NCBI GenBank assembly: GCA_046350855.1
Contig: JAXLZM010000004.1
Coordinates: 10,491 to 74,490 of the forward strand
Direction: 5' to 3'
DNA length: 64,000 nucleotides
From: Candidatus Anderseniibacteriota bacterium
GTDB lineage: Bacteria > Patescibacteriota > JAUYIX01
The position numbers and the translations under genes are program-made. The notes under the pieces were generated by a model. It was not told where the DNA came from. It worked only from the letters and a program-made list of their open reading frames with translations, and searched no databases. Below are positions 10,473-61,504 of this stretch, one piece after another. Each line of letters opens with the position of its first letter. Within the stretch, counting starts at the first letter, position 1.

Positions 10473-10504
10473 CGCTCGTAATGGTAGCACGGTCTCAAAA
10501 AAAT

Positions 10505-41899: not shown

Positions 41900-42469
41900 T
41901 TACTGAGTCGCGTTGTTAGTGGCGTTGCTGGTGTTATTGGTCTCGTTGGTGGCGTTTGACGTGTTAGCCGGTGTGGTATTAGCGGCGTTACCCGTGCTGT
42001 TTGTCGCGTTCTTGGTGTCAGGGTTCAAGACGACGGGTGCCACGTTGATGATGCGGTTCTCCGAGGTACGGAAGATAATGGCCTCTGTGCTGTAGAGCAA
42101 CAAGGTGTCACCGTTACGAGCATTTTTGTAGAACGACTCGTTAGCCGCACGTAGCTTGTCGACATCCGTAATCGTAGCGACGGTTGGCTTATCCTCAGGC
42201 ACCAAGATCAACTTAGAAACACTATTGATCACGTTTTGGCTAGCTTCCTCAGCCAATTTAGTCTGGGCCTCAGGCTTCTTGAGGGACATGTTTTGCCAGT
42301 ACATATAGGCAAGTCCACCAGCGAGAGCGAGAACGAGGACCCAAAGAATAATGGTCATCGCGCCAAAGCGGCGACGAGAAGTTTTTTTTGCGGGAATTGG
42401 ATCTGGCACGGGGGTGAGAGGTGAATAATTAGTCCCCGTATCATAACGAGAGGGACCCTGGTACGTCAA
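41900..42469 (-). CDS. Hypothetical membrane-anchored protein with an Asn/Thr-rich C-terminal tail
   Basis: TM segment (MTIILWVLVLALAGGLAYMYW). The tail reads NATNSTGNAANTTPANTSNATNETNNTSNATNNATQ. Confidence 0.5.
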   Translation of the reverse strand: MTYQGPSRYDTGTNYSPLTPVPDPIPAKKTSRRRFGAMTIILWVLVLALAGGLAYMYWQNMSLKKPEAQTKLAEEASQNVINSVSKLILVPEDKPTVATITDVDKLRAANESFYKNARNGDTLLLYSTEAIIFRTSENRIINVAPVVLNPDTKNATNSTGNAANTTPANTSNATNETNNTSNATNNATQ

Positions 42470-42531
42470 CCAAACAGGTGCACAGAGCCATCAGAGTGGC
42501 AAGAATACATCGCAGCCGCTAGGATAAACAC

Positions 42532-43008
42532 ATGCGTAAAGCCTGGATTGTTCCGCTCCTGCTTATCATTGGACTGGTAGCCACCGTCGGCTGGATCATA
42601 CGCGCGCCGCGTCAGCAGTCATTTTTGCCGGCAGAACTGGCGGGTAAAATTACTTTTACGGTCTACGCCCCAAAAACAATGCCGACGGGGTTCAGCCTCA
42701 AAACGGACTCACTACGGTATCAGGAGGGTGTGCTGCTGTTGGATATTACGTCCCCCATCGCAGATGAACCCCTGGTCGTAAGCGAGCAAGCTCGACCGCA
42801 GGATTTTAAATTTGAAGATTTCTATAAAGATTTTTTTGGCAGCACTAAGACCACTAATGAATTGGGTGAGCTCGTAGTCGGGACTGTGCGCAATCAGACG
42901 ATCGCTAGTTTGCTAACGGACACAACGTGGGTCTTGATTACCGGTTCAAAAAACATCGAGTTTGCGACCGTCAGTGAACTGGCCAAATCTCTCGCACCGG
43001 TTAACTAA
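42532..43008 (+). CDS. Hypothetical membrane-anchored protein (158 aa)
   Basis: N-terminal TM segment (IVPLLLIIGLVATVGWII). It converges on the giant gene with a 16-nt gap. Confidence 0.55.
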   Translation: MRKAWIVPLLLIIGLVATVGWIIRAPRQQSFLPAELAGKITFTVYAPKTMPTGFSLKTDSLRYQEGVLLLDITSPIADEPLVVSEQARPQDFKFEDFYKDFFGSTKTTNELGELVVGTVRNQTIASLLTDTTWVLITGSKNIEFATVSELAKSLAPVN

Positions 43009-46000: not shown

Positions 46001-49000
46001 GGCCGACGGGGCGACGGTTAGAGCAATGTCACCGGCGTTGACCACGATGCCGCCGTTGGCCGAGACCACATCGATCGTTGGGGTGGAGCCTTCGCCCGAG
46101 GCGTTACCCGTAAGACCCGCTCCGGCCGTAAAGCTCGCGACATAGCTACCGGTTGTGTCCGTTGTGAGCGCGACGGAGTCGGCCCCGACGGTAAGACCAC
46201 CCGAAAAGCTCCCAGTTATGTCAGCTGCAGCCGGTGACTCGCCAACGTTGACGTAGACCGAGTCCAGGGTCCCCGTGTAGTTAGCGTCGGTTAAGATCGT
46301 GCCAGTTGAACCACTGAGCGTGTAGGTAGCGTTGGCTGCGAGATCGCCAACATCTAACGTCCCAAAGAAGGTCGCTCCAGCTGACTCTAAGATCTTAAGC
46401 TCGGACGACGCGTTGTTAAGAGAAATATCGAATGCACCCGTTTGGTTCCAGTCCGCGGTGAGCGGACCAAGTGCGATGTCGTCGGCATTAACGGTTATAC
46501 CGCTCCCAGCACCCACGGCAACCGTAGGAGTGGAACCCTCACTACTGACTGTGCCCGTGAGCCCGCCACCTGCGGTAAGGGTGGCGACGTAGTTACCCGT
46601 GGTATCCGTTGTGAGCGCTACAGCATCTGCGCCGACGTTCAGCCCGCCGGAGAACGAGCCCGTAATATCACCCGCAGCTGGAGACTCTCCGACATTTACG
46701 TAGACCGAGTCTAATGTGCCCGTGTAGTTAGCGTCGGTTAAGATCGTGCCAGTTGAGCCGCTCAATGTATATGTCGCGTTTGCAGAAAGATCACCCACGT
46801 CTAACGTCCCAAAGAACGTAGCCCCTGCAGACTCCAAAATCTTGAGTTCAGAGCTGGCATTGTTGAGAGAAATATCAAACGCACCGGTTTGATTCCAGTC
46901 TGCCGTCAAAGGACCCAGTGCGATGTCGTCAGCATTGACCGTGATGCCGCTACCAGCTCCGACCGCCACGGTTGGTGTGGAGCCCTCACTGCTCACGGTC
47001 CCAGTTAAACCTCCGCCTGCGGTAAGGGTGGCGACGTAATTGCCAGTTGTGTCCGTTGTAAGAGCCACAGCGTCGGCACCAACATTCAAACCACCCGAGA
47101 AGCTTCCCGTAATATCTCCGGCCGCAGGTGATTCACCCACGTTGACGTAGACCGCATCAAGCGTGCCAGTATAGTTAGCGTCCGTCAGGATAGTGCCGGT
47201 AGAACCGCTGAGCGTGTAGGTGGCGTTGGCTGCGAGGTCACCGACATCAAGGGTGCCAAAGAAAGTGGCTCCGGCTGACTCCAGAATCTTGAGTTCGGAA
47301 CTGGCATTGTTGAGAGAAATATCGAAAGCACCGGTTTGGTTCCAGTCAGCCGTTAAAGGACCAAGTGCGATGTCATTGGCGTTGACGGTGATGCCACTGC
47401 CGGCTCCAATGTCCAAAGCGCTTCCGTTAGCAGCAAGGCCGGCGCCCGCTAGCGTGCTCTCTGAGATATCAAACGTAATCGTCTCTGGGTTGTCCGCACC
47501 GGTGATCGTCAGATTGGTGCCAGTCGCCAAGAGTTGCACGGTGTCGGTCGCGCTGTCAGCAACCGGATCGGTACCAGCTGGGGTATCGATCGTGGCAAAA
47601 CTGTTGGTACCGGTGCTGCTATCTGCGCTACAGGCCCACACGTCGGAAGCCTCATTCCATTTGAGGATCTCTGTGTCTGCACAACCTTGCAAGAGAGCCA
47701 CACCGGAGGCCAGGATTTCCATGCCAGAGCCAGAGGATGTGGTTGAAGAAAGGCCGTTTGCAGACGGAGCAACGGTCAGTGCGATATCGCCCGCATTAAC
47801 GACGATACCCCCATTTGCAGACACAACATCGATGGTTGGGGTCGAGCCCTCACCGCTGGCGTTACCAGTTAGTCCAGCTCCTGCTGTAAAACTCGCGACA
47901 TAGCTACCGGTTGTATCCGTCGTTAGCGCAACCGCGTCTGCCCCAACGTTGAGCCCACCCGAGAAGCTTCCCGTAATATCACCGGCTGCCGGCGACTCAC
48001 CTACGTTGACGTAGACCGAGTCCAGAGTGCCGGTATAGTTGGCGTCCGTCAGGATCGTTCCGGTAGAACCACTGAGGGTATACGTTGCATTTGCAGCGAG
48101 ATCGCCTACGTCCAGCGTGCCAAAGAATGTCGCTCCTGCCGACTCTAAAATTTTGAGCTCGGAGCTTGCATTATTGAGTGAAATATCAAAAGCACCCGTC
48201 TGGTTCCAGTCAGCCGTCAGGGGTCCAAGTGCAATGTCATCGGCATTGACGGTGATGCCACTGCCGGCACCCACAGCCACGGTCGGGGTTGAGCCCTCGC
48301 TGCTAACCGTGCCGGTCAAGCCGCCACCGGCGGTCAATGTTGCCACGTAGTTACCGGTGGTGTCGGTCGTAAGAGCAACGGCATCCGCGCCGACGTTCAG
48401 CCCGCCGGAGAAAGAACCAGTGATGTCCCCTGCAGCCGGCGACTCACCTACGTTGACATACACTGCATCGAGGGTACCCGTGTAGTTTGCATCGGTAAGA
48501 ACCGTACCGGAACTACCACTGAGGGTGTAGGTGGCATTGGCCGCTAAGTCACCCACATCGAGTGTGCCAAAGAACGTTGCTCCAGCAGATTCCAGGATTT
48601 TAAGCTCGGATGATGCATTGTTGAGACTAATGTCAAAAGCACCCGTTTGGTTCCAATCTGCCGTCAGAGGGCCTAGTGCAATATCGTTAGCGTTAACCGT
48701 GATACCGCTGCCGGCGCCAATGTCGAGGGCGCTACCGTTAGCAGCAAGGCCTGCGCCCGCTAAGGTTGACTCTGAAATATCAAACGTGATCGTCTCGGGA
48801 TTATCAGCGCCCGTTATCGTCAGGTTGGTGCCGGTCGCCAAGAGCTGTAGTGTATCGCTCGCACTATCCGCAACCGGATCGGTACCCGCCGGTGTATCGA
48901 TCGTGGCAAAGCTGTTAGTGCCCGTGCTGCTATCGGCACTACACGCCCAAACATCTGAGGCTTCGTTCCACTTGAGTATCTCGGTGTCAGCACAGCCTTG

Positions 49001-52000
49001 GAGTAGGGCTACACCAGATGCCAAAATCTCCATGCCCGATCCAGAAGACGTCGTCGAGGAGAGACCGTTAGCAGAGGGTGCGACGGTGAGCGCGATGTCT
49101 CCGGCGTTGACCACGATACCGCCGTTAGCTGAGACCACATCAATGGTTGGGGTGGAGCCTTCGCCCGAGGCGTTACCCGTAAGACCCGCTCCGGCCGTAA
49201 AGCTCGCGACGTAGTTACCCGTTGTGTCGGTTGTGAGGGCAACGGCGTCCGCTCCGACCGTAAGGCCACCCGAGAAGCTTCCCGTAATATCTCCAGCCGC
49301 CGGTGATTCACCTACATTGACGTAGACCGAGTCCAGAGTGCCGGTATAGTTGGCGTCGGTCAAAATGGTGCCGGTAGAACCACTGAGCGTGTAGGTGGCG
49401 TTGGCTGCCAAGTCACCGACGTCGAGAGTGCCAAAGAAGGTGGCGCCAGCCGACTCAAGGATTTTGAGTTCCGACGATGCATTGTTGAGAGAAATATCGA
49501 AAGCACCGGTTTGATTCCAGTCAGCCGTTAAAGGACCAAGTGCGATGTCGTCCGCGTTAACCGTAATACCGCTCCCCGCGCCCACTGCGACCGTTGGTGT
49601 CGAGCCTTCGCTGCTGACGGTACCAGTGAGACCGCCGCCCGCGGTCAGTGTCGCGACGTAGTTACCCGTTGTGTCGGTGCTGAGGGCCACCGCATCCGCG
49701 CCGACGTTCAGCCCGCCAGAAAAAGAACCCGTAATATCCCCTGCCGCTGGTGACTCGCCGACATTTACATACACCGCATCGAGCGTTCCAGTGTAATTGG
49801 CGTCAGTTAGGATGGTTCCGGTGGAGCCGCTCAGGGTGTAGGTCGCGTTTGCAGCCAAGTCACCGACGTCGAGCGTGCCAAAGAAGGTGGCGCCTGCGGA
49901 TTCCAGAATCTTGAGCTCGGAGGAGGCATTGTTGAGGGAGATATCAAAGGCACCGGTCTGGTTCCAATCCGCCGTCAGCGGACCGAGGGCGATGTTGTCC
50001 GCGTTAACCGTAATGCCACTACCCGTGCCGATGTCGAGAGCTTCACCGTTGAGCGCAAGACCTGCTCCAGCCAAAGCACTCTCAACCAGATCAAACGTGA
50101 CCGTCTCAGGGTTGTCCGCGCCTGTGATCGTAAGGGTGGTGCCGGTTGCTAGCAACTGCACCGTGTCGGTTGGACTGTCCGCCGCTGGATCGGTTCCGGC
50201 CGGGGTGTCGATCGTGGCAAAACTATTGGTGACCGTGTTGCTGTCTGCGGCACAGGCCCAAACGTCGTTTGTCTCATCCCACTTAAGTATTTGTGTGTCG
50301 GCACAACCCTGCAACAACGTCACGCCGGTCCCAAGGATTTCAAGACCAGAGCCAGATGAGGTAGTTGATGAGAGACCATTAGCCGAGGGCGCAACCGTGA
50401 GTGCAATGTCTCCTGCGTTGACGACGATACCGCCATTGGCGGAGACTACATCAATCGTTGGCGTGGAACCCTCACCACTGGCGTTACCAGTCAGTCCGGC
50501 CCCTGCCGTCAAGCTCGCCACGTAGTTACCGGTCGTATCCGTTCCCAGCGCAACAGCATCTGCGCCTACGTTGAGACCACCGCTAAACGAGCCGGTGATG
50601 TCGCCCGCCGCCGGTGATTCACCTACATTGACATACACAGCATCGAGCGTCCCCGTGTAATTTGCGTCGGTTAGGATCGTACCGGTAGAACCACTCAACG
50701 TATAGGTGGCGTTAGCCGCAAGATCGCCTACGTCCAGCGTCCCAAAGAAGGTTGCTCCGGCTGACTCTAAAATCTTGAGCTCGGATGACGCATTATTGAG
50801 GCTCACATCAAAGGCCCCGGTCTGGTTCCAGTCGGCAGTGAGTGGCCCGAGGGCAATGTCGTCGGCATTGACGGTAATGCCACTTCCCGCTCCAATGTCG
50901 AGCGCGCTACCGCTGGCCGCAAGCCCGGCCCCCGCTAATACGCTTTCGACCACATCAAACGTAATCGTCTCGGGGTTGTCGGCACCAGTGATTGTGAGGC
51001 TGGTGCCGGTCGCGAGCAGCTGGAGCGTATCCGAGGTAGAGTCCGCAACTGGATCCGTGCCTGCCGGCGTGTCGATCGTAGTAAAGCTGTTCGAGGGTGT
51101 ATTTGAGTCTGAACTACAGGCCCACACATCGCTGGTCTCGTTCCATTTGAGAATTTCGGTATCGGCACAGCCTTGCAACAGCGCAACGCCAGAGGCAAGA
51201 ATCTCGAGACCCGAGCCTGAGGACGTTGTCGACGACAAGCCATTGGCCGACGCGGCGGTGGTCAGGGCGATGTCACCGGCGTTGACCACGATACCGCCGT
51301 TGGCAGAGACCACATCGATCGTCGGAGTTGAACCTTCGCCAGTTGCATTGCCCGTCAAACCGGCACCCGCGGTAAAACTCGCCACGTAGTCATTGGTTGT
51401 GTCGGTACCGAGTGCGACTGAGTTGGCGTTGACCGTCAAGCCGCCACTAAAGCTGCCGCTGATGTCACCTGCCGCGGGAGACTCACCGACGTTGACGTAG
51501 ATCGGATCCAAGGTTCCCGAGTAATTTGCATCGGTGAGCAGTGTTCCGGACGAACCGCTTAAGGTGTACGTCGCGTTAGCCGCGAGGTCGCCCACGTCGA
51601 GTGTGCCAAAGAAGGTTGCTCCAGCGGACTCTAAGATCTTTAGTTCTGACGAGGCATTGTTGAGTGAGATATCAAACGCGCCGGTTTGATTCCAATCGGC
51701 GGTCAGCGGACCCAAGGTGATGTCGTTGGCATTGACGGTAACCCCACTTCCACTGCCGATATCAAGTGCCTCACCGTTGAGTACCAGACCGGCACCGGCC
51801 AGTACACTTTCCACCAGATCAAACGTAATCGTCTCTGGGTTGTCCGCACCCGTGACGGTCAGGGTTGTACCGGTGGCAATCAGCTGAACGGTATCCGTCG
51901 GGCTATCAGCGACCGGGTCGGTCCCGCTCGGCGTGTCGATCGTGACAAAACTATTGCTCGAGGAGCCGCCCCCGTCAGCGCTACAGGTCCACACATCGCT

Positions 52001-54427
52001 GGCTTCGTTCCACTTAAGAATCTCGGTGTCAGCACAGCCTTGCAGCAAGGCAACTCCGGAGGCGAGGATTTCGAGGCCAGAACCCGATGAGGTCGTCGCC
52101 GAGAGACCATTTGCAGAGGGGGCCGCCGTTAAAGCGATATCCCCGGCGTTGACCACGATTCCCCCATTGGCCGAGACCACATCAATCGTTGGGGTTGAAC
52201 CTTCGCCCGTGGCATTACCCGTGAGTCCCGCCCCAGCCGTAAAGCTCGCCACGTAGTCATTGATCGTATCGGTCCCGAGTGCGACGGCATTTGGGCCAAC
52301 GGTCAAACCTGCTGTGAAACTCCCCGTGATGTCCCCCGCCGCCGGCGACTCACCTACGTTGACATAGATCGGATCCAACGTACCCGAGTAATTAGCGTCG
52401 GTTAGAATTGTTCCGGTAGAACCACTGAGGGTATACGTCGCATTTGCGGCGAGGTCACCGACGTCAAGTGTGCCAAAGAAGGTCGCACCGGCGGACTCGA
52501 GTAGTTTGAGCTCAGAGCTGGCATTGTTGAGTGAGATATCAAAAGCACCGGTCTGGTTCCAGTCAGCGGTCAGCGGACCGAGCGCAATATTGTCAGCATT
52601 AACGGTAATACCACTCCCTGTACCGATATCGATAATTGGATCAGCGGCCGTACCCGAGTTGACCAATCCGGCACCGGCCGTGACGCTCGTAACGGTTCCG
52701 CCAGAATTATTGTCTGCTGCACAGGCCCAAACCGCTCCGGTCCACTTGAGAATCTCATTGGCACCACAAGAAGTAAGCAGTGAGAGCGCCGCCGCTCCCG
52801 AAGCCGTCCCACCCTCGAGCCCGGTGCCAGCCGCGGTCGTGACCGAGGTAATATCCGCACCTTGGATTTGGGCGAGAGCAGACTCTACGTCGTTAGTTGT
52901 GTAAAAATTTCCTGCGTCCGCAATGGGGAGGTCCGCTGCACTGACCTGTCCAGCGCCAGTTCCAAAATTGATGTTGGTATCCCCGATCGTGCCTACCGCG
53001 ACACCGCCCGCTCCCACCGTGATGGTTGCGTCAGCCGCGACCGCAACGACGCTGTTACCCGAGAGTCCCAGACCGTTACCGGTTGCGACCGTGAGTGTGT
53101 CACCCGAGATGGTCAACCCATTGGTGGCGTTGTCATTGATCAGCAAAACATCCGCCGAGATAGAGAGACCGTTGGTGCCTGAGTCGTTGATATCCAAAAT
53201 CGGATCTTGGGCCGTGCCGGAGTTGCCGAGTCCTGAGCCCGCGGTGACAGAGGTGACGGTTCCACCAGAGTTGGCATCAGATGAACACAACCAGGCTGCT
53301 CCCGACCACTTGAGAATCTCCGTAGCGGCACAGCTGGTGAGGAGCGACAAGTTGGCAACGCCACTGGTAACGCCCCCCTCTAATCCGGAACTCGCCCCCG
53401 TCGTAACGGAAGTAATGTCCGCACCTTGGATTTGGGCTAAGGCTGACTCCACGTCGTTGGTCGTATAAAAACCACCCACATCGGCGATCGGGAGATCAGC
53501 GCCCGAGACGGTTCCAACCCCTACGCCAAAAGCGATGTTAGAATCGCCAATAACGCCCACCGCAATACCGCCAGCCCCGACGGAGATGGTTGCATCCGCC
53601 GCGACGGCAACAACCGAGTTTCCCGAGAGACCCAAGCCGTTGCCAGTTGCCACGGTCAGCACGTCCCCTACTAGCGAGAGACCGTTGGTACCGTTATCGT
53701 TAATCGTCAAAATATCCGCGCTGATCGCGAGACCATTAGTAGCCGAGTCGTTGATGTCGATCACCGGATCAGTGGCGGTTCCTGAGTCGGATAGACCCGA
53801 GCCAGCCGTGACACTCGTGACCGTACCCGCCCCGGGCGGTCCCGGGGGCCCTGCTGGACCGGTAGCGCCAGTCGCACCCGTGGCTCCATCTGCTCCGTCG
53901 GCCCCGGTCGCACCATCTGCACCGGCTGGCCCCTGTGGTCCCATGGCGCCCACCACCCCCGGCACACCCTGCGGTCCAATCGAGCCGCTCGCCCCCGCGG
54001 GTCCAGCCGGACCATCGGCACCCGGTGCGCCATCTTTACCGGTTGCACCTCCCGTGCCACCGCTCCCGGCGCCTATAAAGCCACCCAACTGGTCGGGCTC
54101 CAAAATTTGCAACTCGGACCCAGTCCCATCAATACTCGAGCCAAAATTGCTTCCGGCATCACCTTCTTTGAGCAACTTAAACGGCCCGAGAGCTGAACCA
54201 GTCAAATCCAGCGCAGAGAGTGAAATATGTTTAAAGGCAAAAAACGACCAAAAGATCGTCGCTCCAAGCAACAGAATGATCAAAAACAAATACAAAACCG
54301 TGCGCTTTGAGATACCGTCAAGTACCTCAACGACCCCCATGTCTTGCTCGTCCAGTTGCGGTGGAGAAACATAGGGTTTAACACGCTCAAGCGGAGCCCT
54401 GGGAGAAGGAAATTTAGGCGATTCCAA
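43025..54427 (-). CDS. Giant (3,800-aa) membrane-anchored, collagen-like, highly repetitive surface protein
   Basis: A single 11.4-kb ORF with a TTG start; an in-frame ATG lies 29 codons downstream. It has an N-terminal TM segment (LYLFLIILLLGATIFWSFFAF) and about 25 Gly-X-Y triplets (GAPGADGPAGPAGASGSIGPQGVPG...). Tandem 149-aa and 288-aa Thr/Ser/Gly/Ala-rich modules recur about 9 times. The unique C-terminal domain carries two YY(S/N)..RC(F/Y)ENGAW.DC motifs. Confidence 0.8.
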   Translation of the reverse strand: MESPKFPSPRAPLERVKPYVSPPQLDEQDMGVVEVLDGISKRTVLYLFLIILLLGATIFWSFFAFKHISLSALDLTGSALGPFKLLKEGDAGSNFGSSIDGTGSELQILEPDQLGGFIGAGSGGTGGATGKDGAPGADGPAGPAGASGSIGPQGVPGVVGAMGPQGPAGADGATGADGADGATGATGATGPAGPPGPPGAGTVTSVTAGSGLSDSGTATDPVIDINDSATNGLAISADILTINDNGTNGLSLVGDVLTVATGNGLGLSGNSVVAVAADATISVGAGGIAVGVIGDSNIAFGVGVGTVSGADLPIADVGGFYTTNDVESALAQIQGADITSVTTGASSGLEGGVTSGVANLSLLTSCAATEILKWSGAAWLCSSDANSGGTVTSVTAGSGLGNSGTAQDPILDINDSGTNGLSISADVLLINDNATNGLTISGDTLTVATGNGLGLSGNSVVAVAADATITVGAGGVAVGTIGDTNINFGTGAGQVSAADLPIADAGNFYTTNDVESALAQIQGADITSVTTAAGTGLEGGTASGAAALSLLTSCGANEILKWTGAVWACAADNNSGGTVTSVTAGAGLVNSGTAADPIIDIGTGSGITVNADNIALGPLTADWNQTGAFDISLNNASSELKLLESAGATFFGTLDVGDLAANATYTLSGSTGTILTDANYSGTLDPIYVNVGESPAAGDITGSFTAGLTVGPNAVALGTDTINDYVASFTAGAGLTGNATGEGSTPTIDVVSANGGIVVNAGDIALTAAPSANGLSATTSSGSGLEILASGVALLQGCADTEILKWNEASDVWTCSADGGGSSSNSFVTIDTPSGTDPVADSPTDTVQLIATGTTLTVTGADNPETITFDLVESVLAGAGLVLNGEALDIGSGSGVTVNANDITLGPLTADWNQTGAFDISLNNASSELKILESAGATFFGTLDVGDLAANATYTLSGSSGTLLTDANYSGTLDPIYVNVGESPAAGDISGSFSGGLTVNANSVALGTDTTNDYVASFTAGAGLTGNATGEGSTPTIDVVSANGGIVVNAGDIALTTAASANGLSSTTSSGSGLEILASGVALLQGCADTEILKWNETSDVWACSSDSNTPSNSFTTIDTPAGTDPVADSTSDTLQLLATGTSLTITGADNPETITFDVVESVLAGAGLAASGSALDIGAGSGITVNADDIALGPLTADWNQTGAFDVSLNNASSELKILESAGATFFGTLDVGDLAANATYTLSGSTGTILTDANYTGTLDAVYVNVGESPAAGDITGSFSGGLNVGADAVALGTDTTGNYVASLTAGAGLTGNASGEGSTPTIDVVSANGGIVVNAGDIALTVAPSANGLSSTTSSGSGLEILGTGVTLLQGCADTQILKWDETNDVWACAADSNTVTNSFATIDTPAGTDPAADSPTDTVQLLATGTTLTITGADNPETVTFDLVESALAGAGLALNGEALDIGTGSGITVNADNIALGPLTADWNQTGAFDISLNNASSELKILESAGATFFGTLDVGDLAANATYTLSGSTGTILTDANYTGTLDAVYVNVGESPAAGDITGSFSGGLNVGADAVALSTDTTGNYVATLTAGGGLTGTVSSEGSTPTVAVGAGSGITVNADDIALGPLTADWNQTGAFDISLNNASSELKILESAGATFFGTLDVGDLAANATYTLSGSTGTILTDANYTGTLDSVYVNVGESPAAGDITGSFSGGLTVGADAVALTTDTTGNYVASFTAGAGLTGNASGEGSTPTIDVVSANGGIVVNAGDIALTVAPSANGLSSTTSSGSGMEILASGVALLQGCADTEILKWNEASDVWACSADSSTGTNSFATIDTPAGTDPVADSASDTLQLLATGTNLTITGADNPETITFDISESTLAGAGLAANGSALDIGAGSGITVNANDIALGPLTADWNQTGAFDISLNNASSELKILESAGATFFGTLDVGDLAANATYTLSGSSGTVLTDANYTGTLDAVYVNVGESPAAGDITGSFSGGLNVGADAVALTTDTTGNYVATLTAGGGLTGTVSSEGSTPTVAVGAGSGITVNADDIALGPLTADWNQTGAFDISLNNASSELKILESAGATFFGTLDVGDLAANATYTLSGSTGTILTDANYTGTLDSVYVNVGESPAAGDITGSFSGGLNVGADAVALTTDTTGSYVASFTAGAGLTGNASGEGSTPTIDVVSANGGIVVNAGDIALTVAPSANGLSSTTSSGSGMEILASGVALLQGCADTEILKWNEASDVWACSADSSTGTNSFATIDTPAGTDPVADSATDTVQLLATGTNLTITGADNPETITFDISESTLAGAGLAANGSALDIGAGSGITVNANDIALGPLTADWNQTGAFDISLNNASSELKILESAGATFFGTLDVGDLAANATYTLSGSTGTILTDANYTGTLDAVYVNVGESPAAGDITGSFSGGLNVGADAVALTTDTTGNYVATLTAGGGLTGTVSSEGSTPTVAVGAGSGITVNADDIALGPLTADWNQTGAFDISLNNASSELKILESAGATFFGTLDVGDLSANATYTLSGSTGTILTDANYTGTLDSVYVNVGESPAAGDITGSFSGGLNVGADAVALTTDTTGNYVATLTAGGGLTGTVSSEGSTPTVAVGAGSGITVNADDIALGPLTADWNQTGAFDISLNNASSELKILESAGATFFGTLDVGDLAANATYTLSGSTGTILTDANYTGTLDSVYVNVGESPAAADITGSFSGGLTVGADSVALTTDTTGSYVASFTAGAGLTGNASGEGSTPTIDVVSANGGIVVNAGDIALTVAPSANGLSSTTSSGSGMEILASGVALLQGCADTEVLKWNEASDVWACGTAGTSTNSFATIDTPSGTDPVADTATDTLQLLVTGTNLTITGADNPETATFDISESTLAGAGLAANGSALDIGANSGITVNANDIALGPLTADWNQTGAFDISLNNASSELKILESAGATFFGTLDVGDLAANATYTFSGSTGTVLTDANYTGTLDSVYVNVGESPAAADITGSFSGGLTVGADSVALTTDTTGNYVATLTAGGGLTGTVSSEGSTPTVAVGAGSGITVNADDIALGPLTADWNQTGAFDISLNNASSELKILESAGATFFGTVDVGDLSANATYTLSGSTGTVLTDANYTSTLDSVYVNVGESPAAGDITGSFSGGLTVGADSVALTTDTTGNYVASFTAGAGLTGNASGEGSTPTIDVVSANGGIVVNAGDIALTVAPSANGLSSTTSSGSGMEILASGVALLQGCADTEILKWNETSDVWACGADVGVTTLQGAYNGGATITTAGSTNIAFTLTSGNFNASGAGSVNLTPTAASQFTSSGALTFTAGAASTWSTSSGALTLTSAAAATWSTAAGALTVNGNSGLNLNTSSGNVSFQPAGSGTTANVQIGAGGSGSTTPDLLGVDVKSVGGGVTDPTGFDGAVYYSGARAKFRCFENGAWKDCDTSAGTLTLPSAYDNDVDGSNVTIPLTTADDSIAIQNPSASGTDSNFLFQLDNQSSTDKTGLRFVAASSTSMTTAIDASATNITNALDLGGNTISGSTAVIDFTNFDVSSTGQLTFSSVTNDITTISNEDLNFSPNGSGNVTVGTSDTTGTLVVLDTKTGSGDPTGTNGAMYYNSNANKMRCYENGAWGDCLTTVLYVSSDVSQSTTTFADVTGLTTAVTSGFTYVFSCDMTYTTAVSTTALQLSLNGPTTTALDYEVLTDTTATAVHNAAQTAYDTNTNPATGGGATRLGVHLTGSIIPSANGTLAVRYRSEVATSAVTVKRGSFCTVSKK
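44000..52300. repeat. Intragenic tandem repeat array with a ~1311-bp composite period (447-bp and 864-bp modules)
   Basis: Identical or near-identical amino-acid strings recur in the main frame and in shadow frames. Shadow-ORF ends (...KLAT, ...(S/R/N)VAT) fall at intervals of 447, 861/864/867 and 1311 bp. Confidence 0.75.
53825..54049 (-). repeat. Collagen-like Gly-X-Y triplet-repeat coding segment within the giant gene
   Basis: Residues about 127-201 of the giant protein form a roughly continuous G-X-Y pattern rich in Pro, Ala and Asp. Confidence 0.7.
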
Positions 54428-54571
54428 GTCGCGGGAAGTGAAAAATTAGACCGAATCTGACTCTAAGAGTCAAGTTCAGTATACGAAAAAATGCGCGGTC
54501 AAGCCACCCCTGATTGAGCCGTTTTCTGGGGACAAACTACCCTGTGGATAACTCGGCACGAGGGCGTTTTC

Positions 54572-55567
54572 TTAGCTTGGCATCGAGAACATAGCTCGCA
54601 CGAGATGTTCTGCCACCGGGAACGGCCGTCCGCGGTAGGGCTGCTCGTGAATATCAAAGCCCGGCGTCTCGTTGATTTCGATCACTGCGTAGTTGCTGAA
54701 CTTGCTGATATCTCTGGCGATCAGATCGATGCCACAAAAACGTAGGCCAAAAATTCGGGCCAGACGCACCGCCATCTTTTTGTACTCGGGATGCACTTTG
54801 TCAGCACACTCAAATGAGCGACCACCGGTACTGACATTGGCATTTTTACGCAGGACAATACGCTTACCCTTGGGTGGGACGAGCTTCTCGGTTAGGTGCT
54901 GCTCGTGCAGGTGCCGTTGCAACTCCAAGTCACGCACGATCGGGCAGAGCGGTTGGTATTTGCCAACTTCCGGCTGCTGATTGTACTGATCAATTAAGCG
55001 GCCGATGCTCAAGACCCCGTCACCAATTACGTAGGCGGGTTTGCGCATCACCACGGTCAAGACCTTTCCATCCAGGACGAGCAGGCGGTAGTCATCGCCT
55101 GGAACAAATTCTTCAACGATAAAAGAGTTGGATTTACCCTTGGTGCGACGGTTGTATTTAAAAACCTCCTCGATGGCGGTCGCCAACCACTTAGTATCCG
55201 TCACGCCCACAAACACGGCACTCCCCTGCGAGCCTTCTACCGGCTTAACCACCAAGGGGAACTTCAAGATACCGTGCCCAACTAGCTCCAGAGCCCGTGT
55301 CACTCTCGTTTCTTTGATACCTGGCGGAACACTAACGCCGTGCTGACGTAAGACACGCTTAACCAAGGCTTTATCGCGCACCAAACGTGCCGAGACCAAA
55401 CGATTGAGGTTGGGCACATCATCGAGTACCAGAATTTTTTTGCTGTTTTTTTGGAATTCGACAACATGGCGCTCCTCATCGAGCACATTTATTGTGACGC
55501 CAAATTTTTGTGCGGCCCTAAACAGGAATCCGACACTTGCCCAGTGACGGGATGATGGTTGCTTCAT
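54572..55567 (-). CDS. ATP-grasp enzyme (RimK / glutathione-synthetase / cyanophycin-synthetase-like ligase)
   Basis: ATP-grasp fold motifs (...FPLVVKPVEGSQGSAV..., EFVPGDDYRLLVLDGKV, NVSTGG). It lies immediately upstream of the giant gene on the same strand. Confidence 0.75.
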   Translation of the reverse strand: MKQPSSRHWASVGFLFRAAQKFGVTINVLDEERHVVEFQKNSKKILVLDDVPNLNRLVSARLVRDKALVKRVLRQHGVSVPPGIKETRVTRALELVGHGILKFPLVVKPVEGSQGSAVFVGVTDTKWLATAIEEVFKYNRRTKGKSNSFIVEEFVPGDDYRLLVLDGKVLTVVMRKPAYVIGDGVLSIGRLIDQYNQQPEVGKYQPLCPIVRDLELQRHLHEQHLTEKLVPPKGKRIVLRKNANVSTGGRSFECADKVHPEYKKMAVRLARIFGLRFCGIDLIARDISKFSNYAVIEINETPGFDIHEQPYRGRPFPVAEHLVRAMFSMPS

Positions 55568-55735
55568 GCAGTTGCGGCTGACGCCTTACGGCGACCACTT
55601 AGCAGTACAACACTTTTTTGCACTTGTCAAGTTGCCAGAGCGTAAAGTCCAATGCGTGCGCACAGTAATTGGATTAAAAACAACAGCTCCGGACCGCATG
55701 GTCCGGAGCTGTATTGCTACTAGAAGAGTACTTAC

Positions 55736-57736
55736 TTACTGGAAGTAGACGGCTTCGACCGCTTGCTTGATGCTGTCAGGCACGACAACCGTTCCACCGT
55801 AGACGTTACCCTCTGCAATAGGGGCTGCGTTGACGGTCAAGTAGTCAGAGGTTGGTGTGGGCAGACTGGTTGGAGTAACCAGCAATAACGGTCGGTTGTT
55901 GAGACCAGAATGACGACCACCGGTCAGGGCATCGGCAAAACCAAGGCCGTTGGCGATACCAATCGTACGCGGTGTATTGGCGCCGCTAAAGAAGGCATCT
56001 GCAATGGCAACCGCGGTTTCAAAACGGTTATTGCCGGCATAGCGATTGACGGTATCGACGTCCATATCCGCTGCCACCATAACCGCATCAGACAACACTA
56101 CCGTTCCACCAACTAAGTCGACCGTATCGAGCGTCCCCGCAACCGAGTCAAAGTAGGAGGAGACCCCGGCATCCAAAGCTTTACTGTCGCTCAACAAGAT
56201 CGGCATAAAGTCTGGGTTGACGGTCTCGGCACTTGCGGCTGCACTGGCGGCTAACGCATCTGGGAAGTTACGCGCATTAGCCAGGATCGCCTCGGACGGA
56301 CCGTTTCCGCGAATCGTGTCCATCTCTGCCGCAACTTTGATCGCAGTTTCGATACGATTATTACCGCCGATACGCTTGATATCAAGGTCTGGGTCAAGCG
56401 CCGCAATTGCGGTCTCAACGTCACTGCTCAAAGCGCTGGTTCCACCAATCAGGTACAAATCTGTTACAGAGTGTGTGTCGTCGACACTATCAAAGACGCG
56501 CGTGATCTCGGCCGCAACGGAAGAATCGAGACTATCTTTGGGGTTAATCAAGAGTGGCGCATCCAGCAAGCCTGCGAGCGGGCCAGCTCCCAGTCCATCC
56601 GGAAAGTCTGCACTGGTCGCAACGACGATGGCATCGGCCGAGTTAGCGGTCGGAAAAGCGTCCTGATCGATCGCGATCGAGGTAGCAACGCGGTTAGCGC
56701 CAGACAAACGGACAAGATCCGTATCGAGCACCGCGTGGAGGCGATAATCAGGCGACGAGAACGTAATGTTATCGACGTTGATCTCTACACCCCCTGAGAC
56801 TTCCTGGGCATTAAACGGAACCGTACTAATCGTACTACCTGTCTCGGTGCGGACCACGCTCAAGCTCGAAGTGTCGATTTCATCCGGCAACAGCCCAAAG
56901 AATCCAGCTACCACTGCGGTTGGCAAAAAGGCCTGCATGCTGCCGACGTTGGGTGTCGTACCATCTGCCAAAAAGTGCGGTGCGCCCAGTGAGGCGACCA
57001 GGTCGGTCGGTCCCTCAGGCGTTTGTTCTGGGGTCACAAAGCCGCCCATGGCGCTCACTAACGCAAAGTACGAACCCGCCACATCCTCACCGTAGCCATC
57101 TTGGTCAAAAAGCATATAGAGACTACCACTCAAAACGTCCATATCGGATTTGGTCGCGTTGCAATGGGGTGGCGTAGCGGTACAAAAATCAAAATCTGAG
57201 CCGGTTCCAAGGGGCGTACGAGCGGGGGTAAGCGTTACATCTACCGAGGCCGCATCGGTACCAAGACCGGCCGTTGCCCAATCTAAGACGACACCGTGGA
57301 TCAGTGAGAAGGTATAGAACTCGTCCAGTTCACCCATATCGGTAAGTACAAGGTGAAACTGAGTCTCATCCGTAATAGGGGTGACACCATCCGGTGCCAT
57401 AGCTCCGGTCAGATCCTGGTGATCGTCATTGAGCCCATCGTGGCGATAGAGCGTGACACCGACAAAACGTCCCTCATCTTGCGCAGCACACACGACCGCA
57501 CCAACCTCACCAACATCGGGGTTGGTTGGATCGGGCACGACTTGGCCATCCACGGTCATGGAGGCAATTACCGGCCGGTCTAATCCAAGATCGTTCCAGG
57601 TAAAGTCGGGTGAACCACTATCACACTGACTCTGGTCGGGCATTGAATCGCCCGCTGCATGTGCCAGATGGGGCACAAAAAATACCGCGGCCACCAAAAC
57701 GGCCAACAGCGCTGTAACACTTTTATATGACTTCAT
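55736..57736 (-). CDS. Secreted surface protein with three C-terminal CWB2 cell-wall-binding repeats
   Basis: Signal peptide (ALLAVLVAAVFFVPHLAHA). The C-terminal half has three repeats of the ANRYETA/ANRVATS...ADALA(A/G)...PLLL type. Confidence 0.7.
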   Translation of the reverse strand: MKSYKSVTALLAVLVAAVFFVPHLAHAAGDSMPDQSQCDSGSPDFTWNDLGLDRPVIASMTVDGQVVPDPTNPDVGEVGAVVCAAQDEGRFVGVTLYRHDGLNDDHQDLTGAMAPDGVTPITDETQFHLVLTDMGELDEFYTFSLIHGVVLDWATAGLGTDAASVDVTLTPARTPLGTGSDFDFCTATPPHCNATKSDMDVLSGSLYMLFDQDGYGEDVAGSYFALVSAMGGFVTPEQTPEGPTDLVASLGAPHFLADGTTPNVGSMQAFLPTAVVAGFFGLLPDEIDTSSLSVVRTETGSTISTVPFNAQEVSGGVEINVDNITFSSPDYRLHAVLDTDLVRLSGANRVATSIAIDQDAFPTANSADAIVVATSADFPDGLGAGPLAGLLDAPLLINPKDSLDSSVAAEITRVFDSVDDTHSVTDLYLIGGTSALSSDVETAIAALDPDLDIKRIGGNNRIETAIKVAAEMDTIRGNGPSEAILANARNFPDALAASAAASAETVNPDFMPILLSDSKALDAGVSSYFDSVAGTLDTVDLVGGTVVLSDAVMVAADMDVDTVNRYAGNNRFETAVAIADAFFSGANTPRTIGIANGLGFADALTGGRHSGLNNRPLLLVTPTSLPTPTSDYLTVNAAPIAEGNVYGGTVVVPDSIKQAVEAVYFQ

Positions 57737-57782
57737 GATGCGTATCCTTTAGTGGGTAGTCCTCCAAGGATACCACACCACT

Positions 57783-58184
57783 TTAGTGGCAGCCGAGCGA
57801 CTCGTAGCCGCGGTCAACACGACACAATTTGGGTCGGCCATTGGCAAACCAAGTATCCCAGTTTTTGGTCTGACACTCCTCGTAGGTAGCATCAATCGTG
57901 ATATCCGGCGGAGTACCTTTTTCGTGACAGCGCCCGGTTCGAGCATCGAGTTCGTTTCCATTGGGCTGAACATACTTGTACCAATGCTGATTTTTTTTAC
58001 AGTCACCGCGTGTCATGAGGGGCACAGTCCCGGTCGCCAAATAGCAGGAGCCCGCCTCTTTACTGGTCAGGTTAAAATTGACAAAGGTTCCGCCCAGACC
58101 AGAAAACCCAAGTACGAGCCAGGTCCCAGCTCCGAGCACAAGGACTACCGCGATCACTAACAAAATTTTAGTGGAAGTTTTCAT
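57783..58184 (-). CDS. Small secreted Cys-rich protein (133 aa, 6 Cys after the signal peptide)
   Basis: ORF trimmed to MKTSTKILLVIAVVLVLGAGTW.... Six cysteines sit in the mature part. Confidence 0.5.
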   Translation of the reverse strand: MKTSTKILLVIAVVLVLGAGTWLVLGFSGLGGTFVNFNLTSKEAGSCYLATGTVPLMTRGDCKKNQHWYKYVQPNGNELDARTGRCHEKGTPPDITIDATYEECQTKNWDTWFANGRPKLCRVDRGYESLGCH

Positions 58185-58306
58185 ACAACTAGGGTAGCAC
58201 ATGGTCCCTAGACAGCCGCCTCCCCTCGTGTAGTATCCGAGCCAGCCAGTGCATGGTTTCGATCGTGCACCCTGTCCATTACTAGTGTGTAAAGGAGACA
58301 AAAGTC

Positions 58307-59023
58307 ATGACTTCGGACACGACTTCGGCTTCGGCAGAACAAAACAACCTTGACTACGTCCTCGGCAATAAGCTGGTGCGGCTCGGTGGGTTGCATCCGA
58401 CGGAGTTCGACCAGCTGATGCGCAAAACGCTCGGAGCGGTACGGCCGCGCGATTTACGCGGTTTTGAGCCCCTCCGTAGCCTACTCAGTACTCCCGCTGA
58501 CTCCGATCCCTATTTGGTGGTCGATAAAACCACCCAGCTACTCTGGTCAGGTGCGGATGATAAGTTCACCCTGGACTCGCAGATAGCCTCTCTGGGCAGG
58601 GGGCTTGTGGGCCAAGAGCTTGAGTATCGCCGACACGAGACCAACGAGACAACGTGGGTACGAGTAATAGCAGAACAATGGGGCAAGTCCGCCTATCTCC
58701 TAGGAGGAAAGCGTGTACAACTCCTCCTGAGACGTACTCCAGATCACCGCAGGGCCGACGAGAACTTGATCGTTGCAACGTACGCGTTTAACAAAGTACT
58801 GCACCAAAAGCGGTATGTGATCCATGAGATCGAGGTTTGTCCGCTACCGCTTGAGAAATTTAGATCGCACTTTGGTTGCGACTACCCGCGATTGGCGTAC
58901 GACTTGCTGTCAGAACTGCGCCTGCTCTACCACAGAACGCTCGATGGTCTGGAGTCCGACGCCAGAGTGATCCGCCGCGATGCCGAAAAGCTCGAGCGAC
59001 TCACAAGCTCGATCTCGGACTAG
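58307..59023 (+). CDS. Hypothetical protein (238 aa)
   Basis: No recognisable domain. An intrinsic terminator follows the stop. Confidence 0.5.
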   Translation: MTSDTTSASAEQNNLDYVLGNKLVRLGGLHPTEFDQLMRKTLGAVRPRDLRGFEPLRSLLSTPADSDPYLVVDKTTQLLWSGADDKFTLDSQIASLGRGLVGQELEYRRHETNETTWVRVIAEQWGKSAYLLGGKRVQLLLRRTPDHRRADENLIVATYAFNKVLHQKRYVIHEIEVCPLPLEKFRSHFGCDYPRLAYDLLSELRLLYHRTLDGLESDARVIRRDAEKLERLTSSISD

Positions 59024-59044
59024 TCCTATTAGGTAACGTAGAAG

Positions 59045-59079
59045 CCCTCTCGGTTTTTTATCGGGAGGGTTTTTTCTTA
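59045..59079 (+). terminator. Rho-independent terminator after the 58307..59023 gene
   Basis: CCCTCtCG-gttttttat-CGgGAGGG stem-loop followed by TTTTTTCTT. Confidence 0.6.
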
Positions 59080-59159
59080 GCTCGGCATCGAGAACATAGA
59101 CCGCACGAGGTGTTTTTGGACTTGTCACGTTTGTAGACTGCCCTACAGAGCCAAAAATA

Positions 59160-59191
59160 AATCGGGGGATGTTTTTTAGCATCCCCCGATT
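59160..59191 (-). terminator. Rho-independent terminator after the RHH gene
   Basis: AATCGGGGGATG-ttttttag-CATCCCCCGATT is a 12-bp perfect stem. In the minus orientation it is followed by TTATTTTTGG. It lies 6 nt past the stop at 59197. Confidence 0.7.
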
Positions 59192-59196
59192 GACGA

Positions 59197-59448
59197 CTAC
59201 TTGGTGACCGGAATGGTCGTAACGACCTTGAGTGTCTCGCCTTGGGCGAGCTTGGCCAAGACGTAGTCGTAGAGACGCAAGGCGTTGCGTAGAACCTCAC
59301 CCTTGTTCTTGAGACCAGCCTTCTTTTGCATGTACTCGATGCGCCGGTACACCGAATCAGGGATTTCTAGCACAACTTGCTGACGCTTCTCTTTCTTAGT
59401 TCTTTTCTTCAAGACGATGCCCTTTCTGTAGCTTGTGGAACCGATCAA
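59197..59448 (-). CDS. Ribbon-helix-helix (CopG/Arc/MetJ-like) DNA-binding protein
   Basis: A beta-strand QVVLEIPDSVYRRIE is followed by helices YMQKKAGL and KGEVLRNALRLYDYV. The TTG start overlaps the TGA of the upstream gene (TTGA). Confidence 0.5.
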   Translation of the reverse strand: MIGSTSYRKGIVLKKRTKKEKRQQVVLEIPDSVYRRIEYMQKKAGLKNKGEVLRNALRLYDYVLAKLAQGETLKVVTTIPVTK

Positions 59449-59699
59449 GTTGACCTGAGAGAGTCTTTTGAGAACAGACAGCCAACGATATGGATGTGTA
59501 GGGAGGCACCCAGAGTCGTTAGGCCATGGCGGGACACGCGACCGATAGCATCGTGACCGACTCTCGGCTGAATATCGTGCAAGCCCTCGAGTGCTGACAC
59601 AACCAGCTCTCTTTTTTCAGCTGCATCCGGCCGTGTTGACTTGGCCAAGTTCGGCCTACTAAAGGGAAGCAACTTACCTAGTTCTTCTTTGTGTGCCAT
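59445..59699 (-). CDS. Hypothetical protein (84 aa) of unknown function, co-transcribed with the RHH gene
   Basis: An ATG at 59699 has a strong SD (AGGAGAGG) 5 nt upstream. No TM segment and no recognisable family. Confidence 0.45.
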   Translation of the reverse strand: MAHKEELGKLLPFSRPNLAKSTRPDAAEKRELVVSALEGLHDIQPRVGHDAIGRVSRHGLTTLGASLHIHIVGCLFSKDSLRST

Positions 59700-59760
59700 T
59701 TGCCTCTCCTGATAAAGAACCACCGCACCAAACTACTTCTTGAGAAATAATTTTGTGCCG

Positions 59761-59834
59761 TGGCAGGCGAGGAGGGAATCGAACCCCCGACGACGGTTTT
59801 GGAGACCGACGTGATACCACTTCACCACTCGCCC
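59761..59834 (-). tRNA. tRNA-Trp (anticodon CCA)
   Basis: A 74-nt cloverleaf: GGGCGAG acceptor stem (G1-U72), D-arm GTGA-AGTGGTA-TCAC, anticodon loop CTCCAAA, T-arm GGGGG-TTCGATT-CCCTC, 3' CTCGCCT-G-CCA. Confidence 0.75.
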
Positions 59835-60109: not shown

Positions 60110-61027
60110 CTACTCGAGCGAGAAGATCACTAAGCCGTAGTCATTGTTGAACTCATCCAGCAAGACCGAGTCGATCTCGCAGTTTTCTGCCGCTTTAGAA
60201 GGCGGATTTATGTCTTCGAGTTGGCCGGGCTGGCAGGTTTCGGCTGGCTTTGACGTTCCCTCCGGTTGTAATTTTGCGATACCAATCTCGTTAGATCCGT
60301 TAGGAGTGTCGTTGGTGTAATCAGAGCGCCGGTAAAAAGAAATCACCACATCGCCGTTGGTCATAACGATCTGGAGCTCCATTAAGAGCGCGGGGTCATC
60401 CGGCAAAGCACTCTGAGTAGAAAAACTATAGTAGTACATACCCCTAAAGGATCCATCAGCCGACTCGATGTAGGTCGGATTGGTTGCTGCCGCTACCCCT
60501 GCATTAACCGGCGGAACCACAAGGATCTCTTTACCTACTGCACGATTTTTATATACGTCCAATAGTTTGGTGGCGTCTGGTACGCGACTATCTTGTTGAT
60601 CGGTGGCGGCAAGAATGTCTTCTATCTTTGCAATGCGCACTGACCTAAACGCATTGGAGCCCTCTGGCAGGTTAAAATCAAACGTGAGGCCCTCTTCGGC
60701 AAATCCGTAGAGCGAGTTGCCTACACCGGTGGTACTGTCCACTTTGGGAGAACCCCACTCCGGTGGGTAGCTAAAACTCAGATCGTAGTCTTTGCCGTTA
60801 TAGGTTTTCCAGTCGCTCGGGACCGTGTCGCTGGATTCTTTATCGGTGTTGGTTGGCACAACCTCCGTACTGTTGGCTGTATCCTCCTGCGCAGACCGCG
60901 CACTATCGTCCGTGGGTTCGGCCTGGCCCATCAAAAAGTACCAGCCAAAAAAGATGCCGGCACCAAGCAGAATCCCGCCCAGCAGACTGAGTGAGATCGC
61001 GAGACCTAATTTGGAAGTGTGTGACAT
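60110..61027 (-). CDS. Hypothetical membrane-anchored extracytoplasmic protein (305 aa)
   Basis: Trimmed to the Met at MSHTSKLGLAISLSLLGGILLGAGIFFGWYF (TM segment). The upstream part of the track ORF would overlap the convergent DsbB-like gene. Confidence 0.5.
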   Translation of the reverse strand: MSHTSKLGLAISLSLLGGILLGAGIFFGWYFLMGQAEPTDDSARSAQEDTANSTEVVPTNTDKESSDTVPSDWKTYNGKDYDLSFSYPPEWGSPKVDSTTGVGNSLYGFAEEGLTFDFNLPEGSNAFRSVRIAKIEDILAATDQQDSRVPDATKLLDVYKNRAVGKEILVVPPVNAGVAAATNPTYIESADGSFRGMYYYSFSTQSALPDDPALLMELQIVMTNGDVVISFYRRSDYTNDTPNGSNEIGIAKLQPEGTSKPAETCQPGQLEDINPPSKAAENCEIDSVLLDEFNNDYGLVIFSLE

Positions 61028-61060
61028 GCAGCGAGTATACCAGAGTGGTACACTGCCGGC

Positions 61061-61504
61061 ATGCTTCAAAAACGCACAGCCGTACTCTATTTTGCTTGGG
61101 CCGTTTCGCTGGCGGGCTTGCTGGGTAGCTTGTACTACAGCGAAATCCGCCACCTCGTGCCCTGCGTTTTGTGCTGGTACCAGCGCATCTGCCTGTATCC
61201 GCTCGCAGTCATTTTTGCGGTGGGCCTTCTCAAAAAAGACAAGTACCTCCCCTACTATGTCTTGCCGCTCTCGTTGATCGGTGGGGGCATCGCACTCTTC
61301 CACTACCTCTTACAGCTCGGAATTATTCCGGACTCGTTAGCGCCCTGCACACAAGGCATCTCCTGCGCCTCGGTGTACGTCGAGTATTTTGGGTTCATCA
61401 CGATCCCCTTTATGTCACTGGTCGCCTTTACAATCATCTCGATCTGCATGTGGCTTACCCTCCGATGGAACAAAGCAGCTTCAGCCACTAATACACTCGC
61501 ATGA
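61061..61504 (+). CDS. Disulfide bond formation protein B (DsbB/BdbC family)
   Basis: Four TM helices with CVLCWYQR (a CxxC pair in the first loop) and a second Cys pair (APCTQGISC). Confidence 0.8.
   Translation: MLQKRTAVLYFAWAVSLAGLLGSLYYSEIRHLVPCVLCWYQRICLYPLAVIFAVGLLKKDKYLPYYVLPLSLIGGGIALFHYLLQLGIIPDSLAPCTQGISCASVYVEYFGFITIPFMSLVAFTIISICMWLTLRWNKAASATNTLA

Follow-up and report, generated by a model that had tools for sequence, protein, structure and literature searches.

The 3' end of an ATP-grasp gene occurs twice in a stretch of 64,000 nucleotides (nt) from a metagenome-assembled genome (MAG) of Candidatus Andersenbacteria, which belongs to the Patescibacteria or candidate phyla radiation (CPR). 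The stretch, hereafter the window (64 kb), covers positions 10,491 to 74,490 of contig JAXLZM010000004.1. One copy belongs to an intact gene, whereas the other, 4.5 kb away, is an orphan. Very probably the orphan locus (locus B; 67 nt, 59065-59131) is what remains of a second ATP-grasp gene unit after an internal deletion of about 1.0 kb. The matching intact unit covers 54560-55633 (1074 nt) and runs from just 5' of a TTGACA element to 12 nt past the stop codon. What strongly supports an origin from a deleted paralogue is a stub of the gene's upstream region that adjoins the orphan tail with nothing in between. The parts concerned are the following (aa, amino acids; ORF, open reading frame).

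54572..55567, minus strand: intact ATP-grasp gene, 331 aa (ORF list; Pfam RimK/ATP-grasp)
54560..54609, minus strand: copy A, the last 11 codons of the intact gene (HLVRAMFSMPS), its stop codon (54572-54574) and 12 nt of 3' flank
55614..55633, minus strand: upstream element of the intact gene, AACTTGACAAGTGCAAAAAA, with a TTGACA (-35-like) hexamer, 47-66 nt 5' of the ATG
59113..59131, minus strand: 5' part of the putative relic, the upstream stub AACGTGACAAGTCCAAAAA, joined directly to the tail, with the junction in the A-run 59113-59117
59065..59112, minus strand: 3' part of the putative relic, the orphan tail (HLVRSMFSMPS, stop codon 59077-59079), plus 12 nt of 3' flank

The repeated gene end

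Copies A (54560-54609) and B (59065-59114) have the same orientation, are offset by 4505 nt and align without gaps, with 44 of 50 positions identical (88%); the longest perfect run common to both is 16 nt. When the window was compared with itself by BLAST, no repeat scored higher than this pair (E = 3e-9) except within the giant gene, which is internally repetitive. The 28-nt core of the repeat, at up to three mismatches, was found at exactly two sites in the 64 kb, where shuffled sequences lead one to expect none. An initial annotation of the window had reported the repeat and proposed a BLASTN comparison of the two copies. The repeat is indeed real and BLASTN finds only these two copies in the window, although the coordinates given for copy B were 1-3 nt off and the identity of about 85% was slightly low.

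On the minus strand copy B reads ...T-stop-QVQK HLVRSMFSMPS-stop, in line with the earlier statement that this tail is still encoded. In-frame stop codons lie directly upstream, and the frame holds no ORF of at least 40 aa, which is the loss of coding capacity expected of a gene relic. The description of copy B as an orphan 3' fragment of the ATP-grasp gene, situated between convergent terminators, likewise stands. The C-terminal extension SMPS-stop is common to A and B but occurs in none of the 49 homologues listed, which mostly end in ...AMFK. Because this ending is lineage-specific, the copy from which B descends must have been very close to the intact ATP-grasp gene. No other ATP-grasp fragments were detected in the window by TBLASTN.

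The 11 shared codons contain four differences between A and B, three of which are synonymous and at third positions (CAT/CAC, CGA/CGG and CCA/CCG), while the fourth replaces Ala by Ser. The synonymous bias, with three of the four differences at third positions, is suggestive of divergence at a time when both copies still coded for protein. It lacks significance, however (p about 0.11), and we rejected the argument as insufficient.

An independent Logan assembly of SRR26348421 contains the two regions on two contigs, one covering the copy B region (56841-59790, with one mismatch) and the other the copy A region (52148-56782); no mismatch falls inside either repeat. An assembly artefact was ruled out, as the copies have diverged to 88% identity, their longest exact run is 16 nt and the independent contigs agree. 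Between the MAG contig and Logan contig L001, five single-nucleotide polymorphisms lie within 32 nt (56314-56345) of a gene for a CWB2 surface protein, the other 4.6 kb being identical. This looks like a local strain-variable patch.

The upstream stub and its junction with the tail

A direct-repeat search revealed a second, short match, in which 59113-59131 agrees with 55615-55633 at 17 of 19 positions. On the gene strand locus B reads AACGTGACAAGTCCAAAAA/CAC... (59131 to 59110, the slash marking the junction), with 0 bases between stub and tail, and the order and orientation of the two parts are those of the intact gene. When the 20 nt adjoining the tail (59131 to 59112) were compared with the 168 nt of intergenic sequence that precede the ATP-grasp gene, 17 of 20 positions matched, a score that was reached by none of 20000 shuffles and by none of 18150 genomic 20-mers. 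The tail itself (59112 to 59065) matches 54607 to 54560 at 42 of 48 positions. Locus B is thus collinear with both the 5' flank and the 3' end of the intact gene, and the two homologies abut, as expected of a relic. When the A upstream region (to 55614) is joined synthetically to the A tail (from 54609), the product and locus B align in one collinear stretch that spans the junction. At up to three mismatches the 20-mer has only two sites in the 64 kb, where none is expected, and with only two sites a common promoter motif was ruled out as the nature of the stub.

The upstream element belongs to the ATP-grasp gene, since it is conserved 5' of the 78%-identical orthologue on L002, the nearest one found. 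The nucleotide homology between the window and this orthologue begins, in BLASTN, at the stub element (window 55635, L002 9941), and in a three-way alignment (A/G)ACTTGACAAGT...CAAAAA...TGTTGTA is kept upstream of both orthologues. The conserved upstream regions (55568-55635, minus strand, and L002 9941-10000) share TTGACAAGT...CAAAAA...TGTTGTA, and a small hairpin, CGCC-GNNN-GGCG, directly precedes the start codon; a canonical -10 hexamer is not evident.

The endpoints of the deletion, as placed on the intact copy, are GCAAAAAA (55621 to 55614) and GCAGAA (54613 to 54608), which have GCA(A/G)AA in common, and the junction in locus B reads CCAAAAA/CAC. The bases 54608-54609 in copy A are the last two of the GAA codon before His-321 and constitute microhomology. 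Short homology at the endpoints is what one expects of a deletion relic; being short, it is weak evidence when taken alone. The apparent Glu to Lys change at the edge of the tail arises because the AAA derives from the promoter A-run at the junction. Since the A-run explains this edge, the "VQK/VAE" similarity that TBLASTN reports upstream of the tail is coincidental. What is observed directly at locus B is the pair of collinear homologies, the exact contact between them, the lost frame and the microhomology.

It appears that the genome once had two ATP-grasp units of about 1.07 kb in direct orientation, at a distance of 4.5 kb. The copy on the side of a ribbon-helix-helix (RHH) gene would then have undergone a single internal deletion of about 1.0 kb. 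In terms of the intact copy, this would have removed about 54608-55613, from the A-run just past the -35-like hexamer to the codon before His-321. The GCA(A/G)AA homology at the endpoints fits slippage or microhomology-mediated end joining. What was left, 19 nt of upstream region joined to the last 11 codons, the stop codon and 12 nt of flank, persists as spacer DNA where two terminators converge, and one of these overlaps the 3' end of the relic. That a full second copy formerly existed, and that it was lost by a single deletion, is what we infer. The presumed relic has neither a start codon nor an open frame, and it likely has no function.

Bacterial pseudogenes are known to show microhomology at deletion sites and to erode rapidly (PMC6054270). 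Like the relics that internal deletion leaves when redundant gene copies erode, locus B is an intergenic, non-coding fragment that is collinear with both ends of an intact homologue, has lost its frame and carries short homology at the junction. It differs in that about 1.0 of the 1.07 kb has gone in apparently one event, leaving 67 nt, and in that the host belongs to the CPR/Patescibacteria. On this reading locus B is an ordinary deletion scar, of a type that is well known, rather than a boundary of a mobile element.

Several points weigh against this explanation. No genome with an intact second copy, or with the 'empty' arrangement, was found, and the nearest orthologue is just 78% identical and lies in a different context. 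The stub is short (19-20 nt) and A-rich, and the microhomology amounts to merely 2-6 nt. The divergence of about 12% between A and B implies one of two things: non-functional DNA has persisted for long in the streamlined genome of a CPR bacterium, or A and B had diverged before they were brought together. The search for further copies covered 64 kb of the genome.

Gene neighbourhood and terminators

Followed along the minus strand, the order is tRNA-Trp (59834-59761), a 92-aa ORF, the RHH protein (59448-59197), the RHH terminator and the relic; next come the convergent 238-aa gene, a Cys-containing protein, the CWB2 protein, the intact ATP-grasp gene and a 3800-aa surface protein.

58307..59023, plus strand: gene for a 238-aa protein of unknown function, convergent with the relic
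59040..59076, plus strand: terminator hairpin and T-run of the 238-aa gene (fold, 15-pair stem, z = -2.2)
59152..59191 (also given as 59160-59191), minus strand: intrinsic terminator of the RHH gene, directly 5' of the relic (terminator scan; fold z = -4.1)
55736..57736, minus strand: gene for a CWB2 (S-layer-like) surface protein (Pfam CW_binding_2, 5e-44), between the copies
55683-55712, minus strand: terminator of the CWB2 gene (terminator scan)
57783..58301, minus strand: gene for a small Cys-containing protein, membrane-anchored or secreted (139-aa product in Logan)

The 3' arm of the hairpin of the 238-aa gene (GAGGG and the T-run) overlaps the left end of copy B. For the Cys-containing protein, the true start is likely an internal ATG, giving MKTSTKILLV.... 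The 238-aa protein had weak partial matches only. Directly downstream of tRNA-Trp (59197-59723, minus strand), the 92-aa ORF overlaps the 83-aa RHH protein by 4 nt. The 83-aa protein has a weak, sub-threshold RHH match, and the 92-aa ORF has no family match in Pfam, NCBIfam or PHROGs; the layout of the two resembles that of a toxin-antitoxin pair. Further along, a 397-aa ORF (60110-61303, minus strand; 305 aa in NCBI, U0517_03695) matched only itself among 5.8 billion protein clusters.

The 3800-aa ORF (43025-54427, minus strand), which is the giant gene, contains long internal tandem repeats with units of about 0.43-1.3 kb and 73-85% nucleotide identity, and its N-terminus carries collagen-like 27-nt repeats (53874-54044). 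The number of repeats differs greatly in its homologues on L002 (2432 aa) and L004 (1300 aa). CWB2 repeats were confirmed by Pfam in two large proteins of the window (33143-36814 and 55736-57736), and the ORF 10592-12547 matches a CWB2-like region of L010 in TBLASTN only. The CWB2 domain is best known from S-layer proteins of the Firmicutes; here it is found in a MAG of the Patescibacteria.

The ATP-grasp protein and the loci of its relatives

The product of the intact gene matches PDB entry 7wac (E = 1.3e-40) and was aligned over its full length with 23 homologues. The NCBIfam model for cyanophycin synthetase gives a partial match (1.6e-70) that is far under the family cut-off. Judged by these matches, the protein appears to be a stand-alone ligase that resembles the ATP-grasp (G) domain of cyanophycin synthetase. 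Among 5.8 billion clusters there was no protein 80-99% identical to it.

Six distant ATP-grasp loci have a terminator-like hairpin, AAAAG(A/G)C...GTCTTTTT, about 25-35 nt 5' of the start codon (L005 2765-2843, L007 9925-10003, L008 40-118, L009 9925-10003, L011 9922-10000 and L013 9925-10003). The hairpin apparently lies 3' of TTGACA/TATAAT-like boxes, shows almost no covariation and is absent from the window. It could be a leader attenuator, or merely the terminator of the upstream gene.

On L002 the ATP-grasp gene follows the giant-gene homologue at about 6 kb instead of preceding it, and on L004, which carries the best relative of the giant protein, that gene starts just 215 nt before the contig end. 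Eleven loci with ATP-grasp homologues in GTDB have no neighbours in common with the window, and exact-protein look-ups for alternative arrangements returned only the same Logan contigs of SRR26348421. The comparative data therefore do not polarise the history of the two copies. When 42017-43008 is compared with L002 3826-4896 and L004 4238-4693, only the giant gene and one or two small downstream genes are syntenic; the rest of the neighbourhood, the position of the ATP-grasp gene included, is rearranged between the window, L002 and L004.

Alternative explanations

The initial annotation had offered integration into a gene terminus as one possible origin of the repeat, next to the deletion of a paralogue and recombination between paralogous ends. 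The repeats would then be attL and attR, left when a site-specific island of about 4.5 kb integrated at the 3' end of the ATP-grasp gene and brought a replacement gene end. Such duplications of gene 3' ends flank integrative elements, the targets of which are tRNA, tmRNA or protein genes. The resemblance is clear: direct repeats of the terminal codons and 3' flank lie a few kb (4.5 kb) apart and bracket accessory surface-protein genes as a cargo, with tRNA-Trp 650 nt away. However, the orphan sits upstream (5') of the intact minus-strand gene and not downstream, at the far end of an element, and the model does not predict an upstream-region stub joined to the orphan tail. Further evidence against integration comes from what is lacking. 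When all ORFs between 33 and 64 kb were scanned with Pfam, NCBIfam and PHROGs, neither the block nor its flanks of about 20 kb yielded an integrase, a recombinase or a transposase; the initial annotation had likewise noticed no integrase. BLASTN found no match of the block to phages or plasmids, and the self-comparison of the window no partial duplicate of tRNA-Trp. The shift in GC content or codon usage within the block that had been suggested as a check was not found: the GC content is 0.52-0.56 against 0.558 for the window, that at third codon positions (GC3) is unremarkable, and codon-usage distance and tetranucleotide correlation (0.877) are within the range of the window. With the fragment on the wrong side, an upstream stub attached to it and neither an integrase nor a compositional signature, an integration scar is very improbable. 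The earlier proposal of a deleted paralogue is strongly supported, given that the stub abuts the tail. The copies do flank a block with the CWB2, Cys-containing and 238-aa genes, as had been stated, but this bracketing is no evidence of a mobile unit; these three genes are bracketed because of where the two gene copies sat.

It is equally hard to credit that the repeat belongs to a dispersed intergenic family or is a generic terminator hairpin, its agreement with a coding frame being coincidental. The left 5-11 nt of copy B (GAGGG and the T-run) are indeed the 3' arm and tail of a hairpin, but most of the 50 shared nt, about 39, fall outside it, namely the 11 codons, the stop codon and part of the flank, and the copy A region has no significant fold (z = 0.15 to 0.29). 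A dispersed repeat is contradicted by the count of just two copies in 64 kb and by the absence of terminal inverted repeats and of an Rfam match. A degenerate, wobble-tolerant pattern of the tail likewise had 0 matches in the GTDB representative genomes and JGI metagenomes, collections that do not contain the source genome or its close relatives. Within the window, therefore, the similarity is neither limited to a hairpin nor that of a common repeat, the two outcomes that the initial annotation had named as fatal to its reading. A functional element would account for the retention of the fragment in a compact genome despite about 12% divergence. A transcript over the relic might pair with the 3' end of the ATP-grasp mRNA, as plus-strand read-through past the terminator of the 238-aa gene would be antisense to the ATP-grasp tail, or the repeats might drive reversible loss of the surface block. 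Yet copy B lies beyond a strong predicted terminator on each strand, the stub no longer includes the stretch 3' of the -35-like hexamer, and promoter prediction finds nothing at this place. The longest perfect identity is 16 nt, a poor substrate for RecA recombination, and no variant arrangement was seen in the available assemblies. We regard either function as highly unlikely.

How the two copies arose

The two copies that the deletion of a paralogue presupposes may have arisen either by dispersed duplication of the 1.07-kb unit within the genome or by Campbell-type insertion of a 3.4-kb block. Each takes two events and gives the same resulting topology. Under intragenomic duplication site B is perhaps ancestral, because the flank of B still forms the predicted terminator of the convergent gene, while its counterpart at A is degenerate. 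An extension of the homology through the hairpin to the left of copy B, with the same CCCT...GAGGG spacing and 14 of 25 matches, was left as unproven.

Campbell-type acquisition is a variant of the relic explanation, from which it departs solely on the source of the two copies. In it, a related strain would have supplied circular DNA with an ATP-grasp allele and the 238-aa, Cys-containing and CWB2 genes; this DNA would have entered the resident unit by a single homologous crossover, after which the redundant upstream copy was deleted. A single crossover yields two direct, sharp-ended copies of the unit that flank the insert, as seen here, and Campbell-type duplicates have in common with copies A and B that they diverge like alleles. 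The stub (89%) and the tail (88%) both differ from copy A, as expected of hybrids between donor and recipient; gene order is fluid between relatives, and three of the four coding differences are synonymous, suggesting divergence while coding. That bias is not significant, however (p about 0.11), and the block shows no deviation in GC, GC3, codon usage or tetranucleotides, although a close donor would leave none either. No relative without the block is at hand, and in contrast to typical Campbell-type duplicates one copy is almost wholly deleted, with neither a donor nor an empty site identified. We consider this origin possible but unlikely.

More specifically, the ATP-grasp unit might have served as a homologous landing pad, at which circular DNA of a related CPR strain with an ATP-grasp allele and a cassette of three surface genes (238-aa, Cys-containing and CWB2) integrated by a single crossover beside the giant surface-protein gene, the redundant copy being deleted later. 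We think this rather doubtful. If true, the Patescibacteria would here show a trace of surface cassettes being exchanged through recombination, with no dedicated integrase involved.

Implications

The result removes a candidate genomic island from consideration, which matters little beyond this locus. It does illustrate that repeats of a gene end bracketing a block can stem from duplication followed by internal deletion, and it offers a quick discriminator, namely whether the upstream region of the gene abuts the orphan tail. The comparison with relatives also records fluid gene order around the surface-protein genes in an Andersenbacteria genome. Finally, duplicated genes are uncommon in the genomes of the CPR/Patescibacteria. 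If locus B is indeed the relic of a second ATP-grasp gene, it documents clearly that, in the streamlined genome of this CPR bacterium (Andersenbacteria), a gene was duplicated and one copy then eroded by deletion.

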